A stretch of DNA of 41,124 nucleotides, from positions 1 through 41,124 of the IMG/VR virus record IMGVR_UViG_3300017645_000007, one strand, 5' to 3'. The position numbers and the translations under genes are program-made. Positions 4,325-15,680 of this stretch are shown here, piece by piece (within the stretch, counting starts at the first letter, position 1; each line of letters opens with the position of its first letter). A model generated the notes under the pieces. It had not been told where the DNA came from, searched no databases, and saw only the letters and a program-made list of their open reading frames with translations. The DNA comes from a virus (lineage: Duplodnaviria > Caudoviricetes).

Positions 4325-4530
4325 AGCAGCACCACCGCGATGAGGGCCACGAGGACGCTCGACACGAAGCCGACCGTCAGGCCGTCAAAAAAGGCGTGCG
4401 GGTGGGCCGGTCCGGCGTCGCGGCGAGCGGGGGCGGTGCGGACGGCAAGCGGCGGCTTGCACGCGCGGCAGCGGCACCATTCGTCGTGGATGGTGCCGGC
4501 GCCCCGGCCGGGCAGTCCTTCTTTGGGCAT
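4321..4530 (-). CDS. Small protein with CxCxxC motif and C-terminal TM helix
   Basis: ATG 4530 (TGATG overlap): MPKEGL...WCRCRACKP...LTVGFVSSVLVALIAVVLL. Confidence 0.6.
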   Translation of the reverse strand: MPKEGLPGRGAGTIHDEWCRCRACKPPLAVRTAPARRDAGPAHPHAFFDGLTVGFVSSVLVALIAVVLL

Positions 4531-4958
4531 CACCGCCTCCCGCCCCGGGCGAGGTCCTGCTCGCAGCGCGTGCAGAGCGTCGGGTCCTCGGCCGACCAGC
4601 TGGTGTCGTCCCCTGCGCGATCGGGCTGGACGGTCCATTCGTCCCAGCCGCAGCGCCGGCAGAGGCGCGGATGCTGCTCGGGCGGCAGGGAGGCGAGCTG
4701 GACGTAGACGTCGGCGCTGAACGGGAAGGCGCGCGGTATGTCGAGATCGTGGACGCGCTTCATCACCGTGCCCGTCTGCTCGAAGAAGCGGAGGTTCTCC
4801 TCGCAGTCGGCGCGATGCTCGGGGCGGTGCCAGAAGGGGCGCGCGGCCTGCTCGATGGTGAGGCCGGCGGCTTCGCGGCGCAGGCGCAGATAGTCCCACG
4901 GCCGGATCGGATCGGGCCGGAACAACTCGGGTGCGCGCGCGGCGGTGGCGTGACGCAT
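4530..4958 (-). CDS. XRE-type HTH protein with C-terminal zinc finger
   Basis: YLRLRREAAGLTIEQAA HTH; CRRC...CTRC; RBS AAGGAG. Confidence 0.75.
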   Translation of the reverse strand: MRHATAARAPELFRPDPIRPWDYLRLRREAAGLTIEQAARPFWHRPEHRADCEENLRFFEQTGTVMKRVHDLDIPRAFPFSADVYVQLASLPPEQHPRLCRRCGWDEWTVQPDRAGDDTSWSAEDPTLCTRCEQDLARGGRR

Positions 4959-5016
4959 GGTCAGTCTCCTTGAGGATGGCGCGGACGGGGCCGCGACGGG
5001 AACGGGGCGATGAACA

Positions 5017-7749
5017 TCAGGCCGCGCCCCTCGGCTCGCCGCCGGGGCGGCGGAAAATCCAGCAATGCACCGATTTGCCGGTGCGGCTGTTGACGGAGCC
5101 GACGCCTACGAAGGGCCGGCTTTTCGAGGTTTTCAGGTGACGGAGGAGATCGGTGTGGGCCGGGATCGTCAGCCGCCGATCGGCGCAGCGCTGCTCGAAC
5201 TCGCCCAGGCGGACGGCTATCAGGCCGGGATCGCGGTGGTGATTGATCGGGTGGCTGCTGTCGGCGCCCTCCAACTCCTCGAGGAAATCATAGCGCTCCC
5301 AGAACAGCGCTACGTCGGGATGCTCGGCCGAGACGGCGAGCTGGCGCTGGCAGGCCATGTCGCGGATCAGCTGCGCGGTTTGCGCGTGCTGCTCGCGGGT
5401 CAGGCTGGGGAGGATCAGGCGGAGCGCATCGAGGAAGGCGAGCAGCTGGCCGTGGGTTTTGGCGAGACGGTTGGTGCGGATCTCGGGCAGGCCCAGCAGG
5501 GCATGTTCGTAACGGCCGAACGCCTGGCGAAAGCAGGTGAGGATATCGGCTTCGCGGCGGACGGCGTGGATGATGAAGCCCGACACCTTCTCGATCGGCC
5601 ATTGTTCTAGGCGCTGGGCGGCTTCCTTGGTGTCGTCGGACCAGCCGGTCATGTCGAAGCCGAGTGACATGATCCGCTCGAGGATCGCGCGGCTGGCGCT
5701 GACTGGCTCGTTCTGCTCGATGACGATCGCGCCGCGAAAGGGCGGCTCGAACGTCTCCATGCCGCCATTCTTGACGCCGCGCGAGCGGACAGACCGGCCG
5801 TTATAGGCGGTCTTCAGCTCCTCCCATTCGAACTTGCGGGCGTGGCTCGCCTCGTCGCGGCGATCGCCCTCGATCAGGACGACGGGGAGGTTGCCCACCT
5901 TGCCGAGGTTGCGCGCGATCGCCGCCGGCGTGGCCTTGGCGGGGTCAAAGCCCTCGTAATTTTCGCGGCCGAAAAGCTTCCAGAGGAACTCGACAAGTGT
6001 GGTCTTCCCGGTGCCGGGGAGGCCGAACATTTCGAGGAATGGGAAGCTTTTTTGATCGCGGCGAACCTGCTCGGCGAACAGGCTGGCGAACCAGAAAGTG
6101 AGGACGACGATCCCTTTCGCCCCGTAGGCGGTCCAGAGATCCGAGAGCCAGCTGGTGTCGAGCGCCTCGGCGTCATAATCGATGTCGAGCAGGCGTTCGG
6201 ACGTGCCGAGCTTGAGCGCGACGTCACCCAGCTCGAAATAGGCTTCCTCGTTTGGCTTGTAGACGCGGCCCTTGCGGACGGCGATCTCGCCGAAGACGTA
6301 GGATTCGCTGTCGCGATCGTAGCCGGTGAAGGCAAGCGGCTGGACGTCAGCGATCCGCGGCGTTTGCCGCTGCATGATGCGATCGAGATGATATTGCGAG
6401 CCGGTCCAGATCGCGCCGGTGCCGATTGCGAAGAGGCGTTTTTTGAACTCGGCGGCGGTGGTGAGCGCGGCGGCGGAGAAGGCGCCCTTGGTCGACGGGC
6501 GGCCGCGCGAGCTTCCGGCGGGAAAATCGACCTGCAGGAAGTAAGCTGTTTCATCGGTGGCGTCGTCGCGCTGCCGATAGAGGGCACGGAAGGTGACGTT
6601 GGCTATCTTCTCGATCCGCAGCGCCTCGCGCGCGGCCTGTTCGCGGATTTCGGCCTCGCGCGCCGGATCGGGCTCCTTGAGCTCCTTGCCGCGCGTGGCC
6701 TGTCGGTAGGCGTCGACGCGCTCCTCGACCTCGCCGGCGTCGATCGACGCCCAGTAGGTTTCGGTGCCGAAGGTGAAATGGAAGCTGGCGAGGCGGTGGC
6801 GTTCCCAGATCAGGTGGGCCTTGTCTGTCGCGGTCGGCGCAATCAGGACCTCGCCGTTCCACAGATAATCGGCGCGCCGGCCGGCATCGAGGCGATCGCG
6901 GATGAGGCAGTCGTTCCAGTCGAGCTTCTGGCCGTCCTCGCCCTCCTCGCGCGTCTGGGCGGCGCCGCAGGTCCAGCCCTCCTCGCGGGCGCGCTTGACA
7001 TATTCGCGGATGTACCTGGTGCCGGTGCCGCCGAGATCGAGCGCCCAGATCAGCTTCGGTGATTTTTGCGGGGTCGGCCCCTCGGCGATCGCGATGCGGA
7101 GCTGGCGCAGCGCGTCCTCGGGGTAGAAATAGGCCGACATGATCGAGACGGCGCGCTGGCCGGCCTGCTCGAGCGCGAGCGCGTCGAAGATGCCTTCGAC
7201 GATCCAGATGGTGTCGCCGGCGGCGAGCGCGGCGAAGCTGACGTCGGGGCGCTGCCACCACTGGCCTTTCACCGTCTTTCCGGGGCAGAAACGGGCCTTT
7301 CGATCGAAGCGGCCGGGCTGGTCGATCAGCCTTTCCCACCATCCGCCGCCGGGGAGCGGGAAGCGGACGGTGGCCGAGACGCGGTTCGTCGTCTGGCAGC
7401 GATAGGTTTCCTGCGCGTAGGCGCCGCGCAGGCCGCGCAGATCGAGGCCGCGCGCGTGGGCGAGATAGGCGTCGGCGGCGGCGTTCGGTTCGGCCTCGCT
7501 GGCCTGGTAGCGGTTCGACCAGGAGTCGAATATCTCGGGGTAGAGTTCGCGGACCGACCGCTCGTAGCCGCAGCTGTTCTGGCGGCCGCATTTGACGACG
7601 CGGGGCGTCACCGCGTGCGTGTAGACCTCGTTCTTCTTGCAGTCGGGGCAGCGGCCGCCCGACAACCAGGTGCCGCCCTTCTTCTTCCACCGGAAATCGG
7701 CGTCGAGGCGCTTGAGCACTTCGCTGTGTATGTCTGTGCTCGTCGTCAT
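5017..7749 (-). CDS. Primase-helicase (Zn-binding + TOPRIM + helicase), P4 alpha-like replication protein
   Basis: CPDC...CGRQNSC Zn finger; TOPRIM IWIVEGIFDALAL and DWND; Walker A GLPGTGKTT, Walker B VLIEGD. Confidence 0.92.
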   Translation of the reverse strand: MTTSTDIHSEVLKRLDADFRWKKKGGTWLSGGRCPDCKKNEVYTHAVTPRVVKCGRQNSCGYERSVRELYPEIFDSWSNRYQASEAEPNAAADAYLAHARGLDLRGLRGAYAQETYRCQTTNRVSATVRFPLPGGGWWERLIDQPGRFDRKARFCPGKTVKGQWWQRPDVSFAALAAGDTIWIVEGIFDALALEQAGQRAVSIMSAYFYPEDALRQLRIAIAEGPTPQKSPKLIWALDLGGTGTRYIREYVKRAREEGWTCGAAQTREEGEDGQKLDWNDCLIRDRLDAGRRADYLWNGEVLIAPTATDKAHLIWERHRLASFHFTFGTETYWASIDAGEVEERVDAYRQATRGKELKEPDPAREAEIREQAAREALRIEKIANVTFRALYRQRDDATDETAYFLQVDFPAGSSRGRPSTKGAFSAAALTTAAEFKKRLFAIGTGAIWTGSQYHLDRIMQRQTPRIADVQPLAFTGYDRDSESYVFGEIAVRKGRVYKPNEEAYFELGDVALKLGTSERLLDIDYDAEALDTSWLSDLWTAYGAKGIVVLTFWFASLFAEQVRRDQKSFPFLEMFGLPGTGKTTLVEFLWKLFGRENYEGFDPAKATPAAIARNLGKVGNLPVVLIEGDRRDEASHARKFEWEELKTAYNGRSVRSRGVKNGGMETFEPPFRGAIVIEQNEPVSASRAILERIMSLGFDMTGWSDDTKEAAQRLEQWPIEKVSGFIIHAVRREADILTCFRQAFGRYEHALLGLPEIRTNRLAKTHGQLLAFLDALRLILPSLTREQHAQTAQLIRDMACQRQLAVSAEHPDVALFWERYDFLEELEGADSSHPINHHRDPGLIAVRLGEFEQRCADRRLTIPAHTDLLRHLKTSKSRPFVGVGSVNSRTGKSVHCWIFRRPGGEPRGAA

Positions 7750-12094: not shown

Positions 12095-12403
12095 TCAGGC
12101 GGCCTTGAGCGTCGGGATCGCGTCGAGCTGATCGCCCAGCTCGCGCGCGGCTTTGTGGAGATCGTAAGCGTGCTGCATGTTGAGCCACATCTCCGCCCGA
12201 TTGCCGAGCAGCTTCGCGAGACGCAGCGCCATCGGCGGCGTCACCGGCAGCTTTTCGCCCAGGATATCGTACAGCGTCTGGCGCGAGACGCCGAGCAGGC
12301 GGGCGATCTCGGCCTTCGGCCGCTCGAGCGCGGGGATAATATCCTCCCGGAGCAGCGCGCCCGGGTGGGCCGGCGCGAGGCCGGCGAGCAGGGGGTTATT
12401 CAT
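12095..12403 (-). CDS. higA: HigA antitoxin (XRE HTH)
   Basis: HPGALLREDI...VTPPMALRLAKLLG...WLNMQHAYDL; RBS GAGGAGG. Confidence 0.93.
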   Translation of the reverse strand: MNNPLLAGLAPAHPGALLREDIIPALERPKAEIARLLGVSRQTLYDILGEKLPVTPPMALRLAKLLGNRAEMWLNMQHAYDLHKAARELGDQLDAIPTLKAA

Positions 12404-12413
12404 TGCGTCCTCC

Positions 12414-12686
12414 TCAATGATAGTCTTCCAGATCGACATCAATCGCACCCTCGTCCCAGCCAAAGGTGATGCGCCAGTTGCCGCTGACTGACACCGCGTA
12501 ACGCTTCGGTTCGCCGTGCAGGCCGTGGAACTCGAAACCGGGCAGGTCCATATCTTCCGGAACCGTGGCGGCGTTGAGCGCGGCGAGAATGCGGCCGATG
12601 CGCTCGGGCTTTTGCACCGACAATTTTCTGGTCTGGCCGGTGGCGGCGAACAGGCGAAGGCCCTTGTTGCGGATGCTCTTGATCAT
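12414..12686 (-). CDS. higB: HigB toxin (RelE/ParE superfamily)
   Basis: MIKSIRNKGLRLF...VSGNWRITF...VDLEDYH; toxin gene precedes antitoxin. Confidence 0.93.
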   Translation of the reverse strand: MIKSIRNKGLRLFAATGQTRKLSVQKPERIGRILAALNAATVPEDMDLPGFEFHGLHGEPKRYAVSVSGNWRITFGWDEGAIDVDLEDYH

Positions 12687-12691
12687 AGGGA

Positions 12692-12735
12692 ATATGTAAG
12701 GCAACACCTTACATATGTCAAGCGATACCTTACAT
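12692..12735 (-). promoter_or_regulatory. higBA promoter with two tandem palindromic operators
   Basis: ATATGTAAGG-N5-CCTTACATAT (12692-12716) and ATGTCAAG-N5-CCTTACAT (12715-12735); minus-strand TTGACA-N17-TACATA ends 6 nt before the higB ATG. Confidence 0.8.
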
Positions 12736-12805
12736 GAGTGGACTGACCCATTTTTGGAAACGGGCGGCTTATTATGGACTCCATAATAACGCGCGCAACG
12801 CCTAT

Positions 12806-13003
12806 ATGGCCGCAAAGAATCGAGGCCCCAAGGTGGATACGAAACAGGATGAAAAGGCGCTGCGCGCGCGCCTTATAGAAGTTTTAAAAGAATGTCAGGC
12901 TATTGCAGATCAGCTTAGGGAAGCGCGCGTGGCTATCGCTCTCGACGACGCTATCCTTTGGCTAGGTGGCGATCCTGACGAACTGACGTTAGATAAAGGG
13001 TGA
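12806..13003 (+). CDS. Small hypothetical helical protein
   Basis: MAAKNRGP...LKECQAIADQLREARVAIALDDAILWL; convergent with and overlapping the MarR-like gene. Confidence 0.5.
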   Translation: MAAKNRGPKVDTKQDEKALRARLIEVLKECQAIADQLREARVAIALDDAILWLGGDPDELTLDKG

Positions 13004-13436
13004 GAGATTCACTCATTTCTGGCGAGAGCCGGACATAGACACGCCTGCCGTCGTTCGGATCGGCAATGCGGACGAGCCGGCCCTCGTCGGTCAGAAGCTT
13101 GATCCAGCGCAGCCCCGTTGTTGGCGGCACACAGGCGGCGATACACAGGCTGCTAACGCTCACGGGCCGTTCTTCGCGCTCAGCAATGTACAGGTCGAGG
13201 AAGATGTCCCAGGCCGCATCGCTGAAATAATCGCCTGGGAAGTGGCGGTCGCGCCGGCGGCGCTCCTCATAGAGGAGCTTGGCGACTTCACCGAGAGAGA
13301 GAGGCTCCCGTTCCATCCAGGGCGTGCCCCGGGCGCGAGCAGCAACGCGCCGGCACATGTCGTCGGCCAAGAGCGTCGCGTTCGAAAGCGCCGTCCGGAG
13401 CTGATAGAGCACGTCCGTTGTCGATAGCTGTTCCAT
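12951..13436 (-). CDS. MarR-like winged-helix regulator (sphingomonad type)
   Basis: FSDAAWDIFLDLY...VSVSSLCIAACVPPTTGLRWI...DPNDGRRVYVRLS; RBS GGAGG. Confidence 0.88.
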   Translation of the reverse strand: MEQLSTTDVLYQLRTALSNATLLADDMCRRVAARARGTPWMEREPLSLGEVAKLLYEERRRRDRHFPGDYFSDAAWDIFLDLYIAEREERPVSVSSLCIAACVPPTTGLRWIKLLTDEGRLVRIADPNDGRRVYVRLSPEMSESLTLYLTSVRQDRHLAKG

Positions 13437-13476: not shown

Positions 13477-13497
13477 CGGTAAAATATTAATTTACCG
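13477..13497. promoter_or_regulatory. Palindrome upstream of the MarR-like gene, likely operator
   Basis: CGGTAAA-N7-TTTACCG in an AT-rich tract. Confidence 0.5.
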
Positions 13498-13662: not shown

Positions 13663-13698
13663 TTGACATGCCGATGATGCGCACCTAAATATAGGTGC
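13663..13698 (+). promoter_or_regulatory. Sigma70-like promoter with overlapping inverted-repeat operator
   Basis: TTGACA (13663)-N17-TAAATA (13686); GCACCTA-AATA-TAGGTGC (13681-13698) covers the -10. Confidence 0.75.
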
Positions 13699-13747
13699 AT
13701 CGGATGGCCATTGGGGCCGCCGGGCAAGTCCAGAAAGGGACGGCAAA

Positions 13748-13906
13748 ATGACCTATTTTGTTCACGCATCTGATTTCTCGGATATGCAGGACAGCGATTT
13801 GATCGCCATCGCGGACAGCCTGGAAGAGGCTCAAGCCGCAGTCTCGGCCGGCGATCCGCAAAAATTTCACACGATCACCGATCAATATGGATGCGGGCAC
13901 GAATAG
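13748..13906 (+). CDS. Small acidic protein (52 aa), candidate anti-defence protein; absent from the ORF track
   Basis: RBS GAAAGGGA; MTYFVHASDFSDMQDSDLIAIADSLEEAQAAVSAGDPQKFHTITDQYGCGHE (10 D/E, 1 K, 0 R). Confidence 0.7.
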   Translation: MTYFVHASDFSDMQDSDLIAIADSLEEAQAAVSAGDPQKFHTITDQYGCGHE

Positions 13907-13985
13907 GCGCCGCCCGCGTCATTCTGGCCTGCCGCCAAAATCGGCAGGCCGAAATCTTAGGCCATATCCGCGCTAAGGAGGCAAA

Positions 13986-14501
13986 ATGGCGCTCAATCCC
14001 AAGCACGACAACATCCATTACCTCGTCGGCCGCCTCTGCGGCGAAATCTATCCCGAGAGCGTCGCCGATATCCCGGCCCACACGACAGGCAAGGCGCTCG
14101 CCAACCCGATCGAGGCGATCCCGCTGCTCAAGCTGCCGGATACTGACGCCGTGGCCGAGATCATGGAGACGATGCCCGCCGATCCGCCGAGCTATCCCAA
14201 CGGCGCGCGGATCGAGCTGCAAGGCGAATTTTGGCTCGGCTATTATCAGCAGCGCGCGGCCAAACGCCGGGCCGCCGCGCTTACCCCCGACGATCTGACC
14301 CGCGCAGGACAAGCTCTGTTCGGCGATCGGTGGCAAACCGACCTGGCCGGCGCGCTCCATCTCACCGACTCGGCGCGCATCCGACAGATGCTATCCGGCC
14401 GCCGCCCCGTTCCGCCGGGTGTCGCCGCGGAGATCATGGCGCTTCTCCGGCAGAAATCAGCGGAGGCCGCGGCGATGGCGGATGATCTGGAGAGGCGGTG
14501 A
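13986..14501 (+). CDS. Cas8c C-terminal (Cas11c)-like domain fused to an HTH; candidate anti-CRISPR/Aca fusion
   Basis: RBS TAAGGAGG; MALNP...YLVGRL...ALANP...EIM...QGEFWLGYYQQR, then LTPDDLTRAGQALFGDRWQTDLAGAL...IRQMLSGRRPVP HTH. Confidence 0.7.
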   Translation: MALNPKHDNIHYLVGRLCGEIYPESVADIPAHTTGKALANPIEAIPLLKLPDTDAVAEIMETMPADPPSYPNGARIELQGEFWLGYYQQRAAKRRAAALTPDDLTRAGQALFGDRWQTDLAGALHLTDSARIRQMLSGRRPVPPGVAAEIMALLRQKSAEAAAMADDLERR

Positions 14502-14504
14502 ACG

Positions 14505-15680
14505 GTGCGATGCGCAATCTACACACGCAAATCCGCCGACGAACGCCTCGATAGCCAACTCGGATCAACGACCCGCCAACGCGAACTATGCGAGGCCTAT
14601 GTCACAAGCCAATCCGGTCAGGGCTGGCACACGATCCCAACTGCGTATGAGGATATCGGATTTTCTGGCGGGACACTTAAGCGTCCCGCGTTGGCCCGCC
14701 TGCTCGCCGACGCGGCGTTGGGCAAGATCGATGTAATATTGGTATACAAGATCGATCGTCTGTCGCGGTCCTTGCGTGATTTCCTTGACATGATCGAAAC
14801 ATTTGAACGGCATGACGTTGTATTTGTAGCAATAACGCAGTCATTCGACACGGGGTCGAGCACCGGGCGGCTGATGCTCAACGTCCTGTTGAGCTTCGCC
14901 CAGTTCGAGCGCGAGTTGACAAGTGAGCGTTTGCGTGACTGGCTAGAGGGCGCACGCCAACGAGGCCTGTGGACCGGGCGCGCTCCTTTCGGATATGACT
15001 GCACCGACAAGCGACTGACGATCAACGATGAGCAAGCGCGAGCTGTTCGCCTGGCGTTCCGCCATTATCCTCGCGTAAAATCGTCGCGCGCGATCGCTGA
15101 AATGTTAAATGCTCGCGGATATCTTAACCGTGATGGTCGGCCATGGATGATGCAGGCCGTCAACGACATGCTGCACAATCGGTTGTACAGAGGTGATCTC
15201 GTCCATGACGGGAAGGTGGTAAAGCATCAGGCGTTCGATCCAATCGTCTCGGAAACCGAATTCCGGCGGGCACAAGCTACAATCGCGGAAAGTCCGAGAC
15301 GAAAAGCTGGCATCCGGGGCAGCTGGATCGGAACGTTGGCCGAGCGAATTTATGGCTCGCGTGGCCAGAAACTCATACATCTGGCCCAGCCTCGTCGGGG
15401 CAAAGTATATCGCTACTATGTACCGAGCACGATCCGCTATCGCGTCTACGAACCTCCGCTCGACCGATATCGGGCGGAGGCACTGGAGACGGCGGTTGTC
15501 GATAAGATCGAAGAAATTACCGGTGCTACGCTGGCGACCGATAGACATGTCGCGGCCGGCCAGATCAGGCGGCTTTTGCGGCGTATAGATGTGGAGCCAG
15601 AGCAGGTGCAGCTTGAATTTAACGCCGGAGGTGTTTTTCGTGCACCGCACGATGCAGAGATTAAGGTGCGGAGTGGCTAA
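14505..15680 (+). CDS. Serine recombinase (resolvase catalytic + recombinase domain)
   Basis: CAIYTRKS catalytic Ser; YEDIGFSGGTLKRPAL; YKIDRLSRS; FAQFERE; GRAPFGY. Confidence 0.92.
   Translation: MRCAIYTRKSADERLDSQLGSTTRQRELCEAYVTSQSGQGWHTIPTAYEDIGFSGGTLKRPALARLLADAALGKIDVILVYKIDRLSRSLRDFLDMIETFERHDVVFVAITQSFDTGSSTGRLMLNVLLSFAQFERELTSERLRDWLEGARQRGLWTGRAPFGYDCTDKRLTINDEQARAVRLAFRHYPRVKSSRAIAEMLNARGYLNRDGRPWMMQAVNDMLHNRLYRGDLVHDGKVVKHQAFDPIVSETEFRRAQATIAESPRRKAGIRGSWIGTLAERIYGSRGQKLIHLAQPRRGKVYRYYVPSTIRYRVYEPPLDRYRAEALETAVVDKIEEITGATLATDRHVAAGQIRRLLRRIDVEPEQVQLEFNAGGVFRAPHDAEIKVRSG

Follow-up and report, generated by a model that had tools for sequence, protein, structure and literature searches.

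The closest described precedent for the gene analysed here is AcrIB4 of Listeria, which is carried on mobile elements outside cas operons and is homologous to the C-terminal region (Cas11) of a large Cascade subunit (10.1101/2023.06.24.545427; 10.1101/2025.06.06.658234; PMC13131331). AcrIB4 is described as a type I-B inhibitor confined to Listeria that shares 38% identity with the 90 C-terminal residues of Cas8b; it blocks DNA binding, and replacement of Cas11 within Cascade is a proposal even for this protein (10.1101/2023.06.24.545427). A sequence-only reading of the DNA studied here had pointed to phage homologues of Cas proteins that act as anti-CRISPRs, and the literature provides that precedent with AcrIB4. 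In type I-C, Cas11c subunits are reported to form the non-target-strand groove, in which basic and aromatic residues, H78, F117 and K118 among them, hold the strand (10.1101/2022.06.15.496202; 10.1101/2023.08.05.552134; PMC7684278), and F117 of the Desulfovibrio vulgaris protein stacks on that strand (10.1101/2022.06.15.496202). We describe here a phage gene that joins a Cas11c-like domain to a helix-turn-helix (HTH) domain of the kind found in anti-CRISPR-associated (Aca) repressors.

Genomic setting of the fusion gene

The window, that is, the whole stretch of DNA analysed, is a 41-kb virus record (41,124 nt) in which a Pfam scan recognised P2-type capsid, scaffold, terminase, portal, sheath and baseplate hub genes together with an S24 repressor; the portal matches only P2-like phages, at about 63%. 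The fusion gene lies just past the tail genes in an accessory stretch of lower GC, with a HigBA pair on one side and a serine recombinase on the other. The window had been said to hold no other cas gene and no array, and we likewise found neither a CRISPR array nor cas7c within it, and no further cas family in the 25 ORFs scanned out of the 273 listed.

The HigB/HigA-like toxin-antitoxin pair (12095-12815) has a 9-bp inverted repeat upstream at 12693-12715, and the divergent MarR-like winged-helix gene next to it (12951-13436) is preceded by an AT-rich inverted repeat at 13477-13497. On the other side, the serine recombinase (14505..15680, + strand) starts 3 nt past the stop codon of the fusion gene; it is possibly co-transcribed with it and could come under the same repressor. 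None of the relatives checked had it behind the fusion.

The fusion ORF (13986-14501, + strand) encodes 171 aa and is preceded by a Shine-Dalgarno sequence, TAAGGAGG, at 13974-13981. Its translation contains the motifs that had been read earlier, namely MALNP (residues 1-5), followed after six residues by YLVGRL (12-17), then ALANP (37-41), EIME (58-61) and QGEFWLGYYQQR (79-90).

A Cas11c-derived N-terminal domain

The proposed likeness of the N-terminal part to Cas11c, the C-terminus of Cas8c, is borne out by searches of several kinds. Residues 55-92 align with the last 35 positions of the Pfam model Cas_Csd1 (PF09709; E 3.1e-7, 29.9 bits against a cut-off of 27), TIGR01863 matches the protein at E 7e-5, and PHROG 12690, whose function is unassigned, spans its whole length (E 3e-30). 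A single-sequence search of the PDB gave no match; a family profile of 18 sequences matches the D. vulgaris Cas11c (7kha_K, E 8.5e-7), and a profile of 33 N-domain sequences matches solved Cas11c at E 1.4e-7, the ten best rows being all Cas8c or Cas11c. An HHalign comparison of 95 family members with 11 Cas11c gave 98.45% (E 4e-15, 95 columns), and in 236 Pasteurellaceae genomes, once fusion and HTH-only genes are set aside, the best profile matches fell on the 3' ends of frames of about 600 codons at cas8c positions. The predicted model of the domain (pLDDT 94, pTM 0.87) tells the same story in Foldseek, a check proposed earlier: all rows listed down to rank 13 are type I-C Cas8c or Cas11c (prob 0.85-1.00, TMq 0.50-0.58, none with E <= 0.001), while the next unrelated match has prob 0.12 and the type I-E small subunit CasB 0.08. 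Fold alignment with VIA superposed 90 residues on Cas11c (Z 7.8, rmsd 3.3), which for a helical bundle is a moderate Z. Residues 1-98 (13986..14279, + strand) are a helical domain homologous to Cas11c, an ancestry that we regard as practically certain. The blank single-sequence search and the Foldseek E-values above 0.001 might suggest that helical bundles happen to look alike, or that the gene is a cas8c fragment in decay, but the Pfam, profile, HHalign and fold results are concordant and the family is intact, at about 170 aa, in many hosts; this explanation is largely refuted and we consider it extremely improbable.

The copy had also been described as internally shorter, and it has about 20 residues fewer than Cas11c between the glycine of helix 1 and that of the GYY motif: 70 in the window protein and a median of 74 in its relatives (68 of 95 parsed), against 89-93 in the 11 Cas11c. 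The placing of this gap varies with the alignment method. Of the claim that the motifs are the same and in the same order as in Cas11c, the order stands, whereas the pairing of ALANP with ASANP is recovered by the N-domain profile but not by the full-length profile or HHalign, which put Pro30 there. Six residues that are invariant in Cas11c (E22, Q25, N33, I36, D38 and H62) have no counterpart in the fusions in the MAFFT register; the family conserves Y-x-x-G, a proline and QG-F-GYY, and retains the core motifs of helix 1 and GYY.

The residues implicated in holding DNA have fared differently. At the position of D. vulgaris F117, placed via the PDB sequence, all 11 Cas11c have phenylalanine, while among the 90 fusions parsed out of 95 a single one is aromatic and 47 have Asp or Glu; the K119 position is basic in 1/90 and that of K120 in 46/90. 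The window protein has R94, A96 and A97 at these positions, which are not the residues expected for contact with the non-target strand. The net charge of the core also differs, from +2 to +7 in Cas11c to a median of -2 in the fusions and -5 in the window protein.

Such changes, the large deletion and the many invariant residues gone, would suit a domesticated fold that only dimerises or polymerises the repressor without any effect on CRISPR, the protein being an Aca and the upstream genes the inhibitors, and some carriers do lack type I-C genes. We find this unlikely, given the conservation of Y-x-x-G, proline and QG-F-GYY, and three observations detailed below: HTH-only relatives retain the operator and leader, the Cas11c-like domain is also found alone, and the carrier hosts are enriched for cas8c.

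A family of phage and plasmid proteins

The fusion is a widespread family of phages and plasmids that has no name. A profile search returned 117 proteins and a search of representatives 482, many of them HTH-only. Among phage records, 22 of 32 cover at least 80% of the protein, and relatives about 170 aa long come from Mannheimia phages and from OP2-like phages of Xanthomonas; near-full-length matches were present in 4 of 686 matching plasmid records, the other rows shown being matches to the HTH only. Relatives were also present at 51 viral loci, in 254 metagenome stretches (a count that takes fusions and HTH-only forms together) and in bacterial genomes. A search for shorter forms of the family gave 4 matches.

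A FastTree phylogeny on 88 columns split 68 fusion domains (parsed from 95 rows) from the 11 Cas11c with support 1.0, on a tree that is not independently rooted and with a small Cas11c sample, 7 of the 11 being from Pasteurellaceae. The split argues for a lineage that has been kept rather than fresh fragments of cas8c. The window protein is encoded by a gene of its own in the prophage, unlike Cas11c, whose translation starts within the cas8c gene of a type I-C operon. It also ends small-gene operons without any HTH in two phage contigs (L052:4995-5270 and L053:5001-5372), the L053 gene keeping the Cas11c-like N-terminus and scoring above the Pfam cut-off, which indicates that the domain has a job of its own.

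Some members depart from the usual arrangement. The OP2-like Xanthomonas phage pXoo2107 carries two tandem fusion paralogues (L001:3983-4540 and 4527-5057) behind one operator. HTH-only relatives are present on hundreds of Klebsiella and Acinetobacter plasmids (H37-H72), in operons that may contain anti-defence genes.

The sequence-only reading knew of no described type I-C fusion of this kind, and we found no published Cas11c/Cas8c-HTH fusion in the literature searched, where subscription papers are thinly covered. The family is not described in the accessible text of PMC12248084, PMC9410906, 10.1101/2020.06.15.151498 or PMC12658196. Katz et al. (10.1101/2023.06.24.545427) are cited for 358 orphan viral cas genes in their Table S3, which may list members.

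An Aca-like domain and its operon

The claim that the C-terminal part is an HTH is confirmed by fold. Residues 99-171 (14280..14501, + strand, stop codon included) match PHROG 3626 at E 1e-19, and in the full model VIA aligns them to Aca10 (7xi5; Z 8.2, rmsd 1.5, 57 aligned) and Aca2 (7vjo; Z 7.5, rmsd 1.9, 73 aligned), with many other HTH proteins at similar Z. At the sequence level, no match to the solved Aca1, Aca2, Aca7 or Aca10 was found in the PDB at E up to 10, and Pfam Aca2_YdiL did not match the fusion protein; out of Aca1-Aca14, this comparison covered the families with solved structures or Pfam models. The same HTH is joined to other cargo as well, to a DNA methyltransferase in P0096 and P0098 (by Pfam) and to an apparent HNH in P0143.

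Upstream of the fusion, a -35-like hexamer TTGACA (13663..13668, + strand), with TTGAC or TTGCA before the operator in relatives, is followed 17 bp later by a weak -10-like hexamer that lies within a palindrome; a strict sigma70 scan called no promoter at the operon start. The palindrome, GCACCTA-N4-TAGGTGC (13681..13698; core CCTA-N4-TAGG), is the only site of this pattern in the window and the predicted binding site of the HTH. It is the 7-bp inverted repeat contained in the stretch that had been singled out earlier for EMSA. In relatives, the core is located mostly some 250-1000 bp 5' of the gene, on the -10 region and before one or two small genes. A relaxed operator rule was satisfied by 27 of 31 hand-picked non-redundant fusion loci, against 4.4 expected from shuffles (the misses are L046, L105, L128 and L152), and by 13 of 16 HTH-only loci, against 2.5 expected. 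These counts are not fully independent, since the rule was written after the first loci had been seen and the AT-rich centre is in part the -10 box; the metagenome loci played no part in defining the core. In L027 (after 5522) and L161 (after 4225), a second operator is located 3' of the regulator gene and before another gene, which suggests control of the neighbouring operon.

The palindrome is followed by two hairpins in the 5'-UTR. The first (13702..13721, + strand) has a 2-bp stem, a 2-nt bulge, a 4-bp stem, a loop and a 1-nt bulge, and the second (13724..13744, + strand), built in the same way, lies over the first gene's ribosome-binding site; such a hairpin is found behind the operator in 17 of 19 loci. 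In an alignment of 15 sequences, 100% of the cells of hairpin 1 are paired and 5/6 pairs change on both sides, with 88% and 2/4 for hairpin 2. Taken together, 95.3% of cells are paired and 7/10 pairs change on both sides, a result that 0/500 shuffles match and that slid controls do not approach (<=58%), bearing in mind that the structure was derived from the same 15 sequences on which covariation was scored.

The first gene of the operon (13748..13906, + strand) encodes a 52-aa acidic protein (net charge -9), a candidate anti-defence gene with no family above cut-off, no PDB match and only Atlas matches under 0.9. An intergenic stem-loop (13921..13955, + strand) lies ahead of the Shine-Dalgarno sequence of the fusion. 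Across many lineages the fusion is the last gene behind variable cargo, the first gene differing from locus to locus. One recurrent upstream family (profile of 10 proteins) resembles AcrIE7 (E 1.2e-4) and AcrIF23 (E 1.4e-4) over partial or short stretches, and three HTH-only loci have NinX-like genes. Most other upstream cargo matches no family; the acidic gene of L128, for example, has no family or PDB match. In the carrier genome G449 the fusion is followed by a gene similar by motif to AcrIE7/AcrIF23 and by more small genes (L183:1002-1337 and 613-1005).

The locus has, by its sequence, the layout of an acr-aca operon, a promoter palindrome followed by two covarying 5'-UTR hairpins. The same layout has been described for aca1 and aca2 operons, with RNA binding shown for Aca1, in a study that nowhere mentions Cas8, Cas11 or Csd1 (PMC13551039). 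What is new here is the combination of an operator palindrome over the promoter and covarying leader hairpins in the fusion loci. Since HTH-only relatives share the operator (the 13 of 16 above) and the hairpins, autorepression through the fused HTH, as had been proposed, has strong support. Operator and leader are conserved and go with the HTH, which very probably represses its own two-gene operon. That the HTH alone carries the same operator also means that the Cas11c-like domain is not needed for regulation.

Type I-C systems in carrier hosts

The proposed check of the host for a type I-C system was made on the bacterial genomes that carry relatives, with a mixed outcome. Full-length cas8c was found in 7 of 10 carriers (G002, G003, G004, G006, G007, G009 and G189), whereas G001, G449 and G008 have neither full-length cas8c nor cas7c, and G001 and G449 are the carriers nearest to the window lineage (the L054 copy is 51% identical). 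From the family backgrounds, which with carriers included are 75/236, 19/201, 19/61, 10/81, 3/4 and 4/61, and with carriers removed, 2.56 genomes with cas8c were expected (P 0.0017 on this sample of 10 genomes). Collapsing carriers to families, with Pasteurellaceae counted as positive, gave cas8c in 5/6 (P 0.0014), and doubling the backgrounds to allow for incomplete assemblies gave P 0.087. A functional type I-C system is described in X. oryzae (PMC8406640).

Two genomes were left out of the count: G010, whose match (L063) is cas8c itself, and G005, a 0.7-Mb Saccharibacteria bin with a Pasteurellaceae-like locus that is probably mis-binned. With G005 included the count is 7/11 (P 0.002, background assumed to be 0.02). 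No further carriers were found in the 201 genomes of the order of G002.

The enrichment for cas8c would also be expected if the protein were a Cascade-sensing regulator, its Cas11c-like domain docking on Cascade to titrate or switch the repressor so that the other anti-CRISPR genes stay on in type I-C hosts. That many lineages maintain the fusion at the end of an operon with variable cargo agrees with such a role. Nevertheless, Cas11c-like genes exist without the HTH (L052, L053), the cargo resembles type I-E and I-F inhibitors, and HTH-only forms share the operator, so that we give sensing no better a chance than the domesticated fold discussed above.

Proposed mode of action

We read the fusion as two modules, a repressor and a cargo, since each part is also found by itself: relatives with the HTH only share the operator, and the Cas11c-like domain exists as a separate gene. 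The cargo would most likely be an inhibitor of type I-C Cascade, and we lean slightly towards the view that it acts as an anti-CRISPR decoy. On entry, with the promoter unrepressed, the fusion and the small upstream protein would be made in a burst. A dimer of the HTH would then switch expression off by binding the palindrome on the -10 region and perhaps, like Aca1 and Aca2, both RNA hairpins as well. Meanwhile the Cas11c-like domain would stack on the C-terminus of Cas8c or on a Cas11 subunit and take the place of Cas11 in type I-C Cascade. With part of the non-target-strand groove missing from the decoy, the R-loop would be incomplete, Cas3 would not be loaded and the target DNA would not be held.

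Dominant-negative action of this kind is a reasonable inference from the context, the co-occurrence with hosts and the lost DNA-holding residue. The loss of the aromatic residue at F117 and the acidic core give the domain the look of a decoy; they also fit a domain no longer associated with Cascade, and since the F117 position borders the fusion point, in the helix running into the HTH, joining the two domains could by itself explain the lost residue. Given the roughly 20 missing residues and the lost invariant residues, contacts between subunits may have gone too. Other observations count against the decoy: the Acr-like neighbours point to types I-E and I-F and not to I-C, the same HTH is found on other cargo (the methyltransferase and HNH), and the nearest carriers, G001 and G449, as well as G008, show no full-length cas8c or cas7c.

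These neighbours and the retention of only some Cas11c surfaces leave a small chance, marginally below that of the domesticated fold, that the domain inhibits CRISPR by another route, sequestering free Cas8c, Cas11c or Cas7c before assembly, capping the Cas11 filament or hitting another class 1 subtype. There is a parallel in AcrVIA2, a viral Cas3 homologue described as inhibiting a different type from its source. Yet every fold and profile match is to type I-C subunits, and the type I-E small subunit CasB reached only prob 0.08. A bolder version of the decoy is about as doubtful as sensing taken singly: the protein would both poison type I-C Cascade as a Cas11c mimic and sense it by docking, which would pull the repressor off operator and hairpins, so that anti-CRISPR genes would stay on in immune hosts alone; the HTH would then also define an unnamed Aca family with dual control through DNA and RNA.

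If the preferred reading, the Cas11c decoy, is true, this would be a type I-C anti-CRISPR built from the system's own hidden small subunit, and the poisoning of Cascade with a Cas11 subunit would have arisen beyond Listeria type I-B. Type I-C editing tools would gain a compact off-switch, and the protein would be a natural probe for telling the Cas11c surfaces that assemble Cascade from those that hold the R-loop. Decoy or not, the operator and leader hairpins flag many variable small-gene operons, from which anti-defence candidates can be drawn directly, and probably mark an unnamed Aca family.

Comparison with known systems

Cas11c and the C-terminus of Cas8c (7KHA, 8DEX, 8G9S) share with the N-terminal domain the fold and the order of motifs. 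The fusion differs in being its own gene with a ribosome-binding site and no cas operon, in its internal deletion, in the non-aromatic F117 position and acidic core, and in the fused HTH. With Aca1, Aca2 and Aca10 it shares the HTH fold, the promoter palindrome, the bulged 5'-UTR hairpins and the position of the regulator as the last gene of a short operon (PMC13551039; also PMC9410906 and PMC12658196, as far as their accessible text goes), but its HTH has no sequence match to a solved Aca and is joined to a Cas-derived domain. The dual-function HTH anti-CRISPRs AcrIIA1, AcrIF24, AcrIIA15 and AcrIE10, as they are described, are similar in that one protein would both inhibit and autorepress; in the fusion, by contrast, the candidate inhibitor domain is a recognisable homologue of a Cas subunit.

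AcrIB4 and the fusion are both orphan homologues of the Cas11 part carried on mobile elements, the fusion domain splitting from true Cas11c in the tree. The two are set apart, going by the description of AcrIB4, by the type I-C origin of the fusion domain, which is about 20 aa shorter inside, by its occurrence in several Gram-negative host groups and by the HTH, since no fused HTH appears in the accessible accounts of AcrIB4. The fusion is thus neither Cas11c proper nor AcrIB4 and, by analogy, would work like AcrIB4 joined to an Aca.
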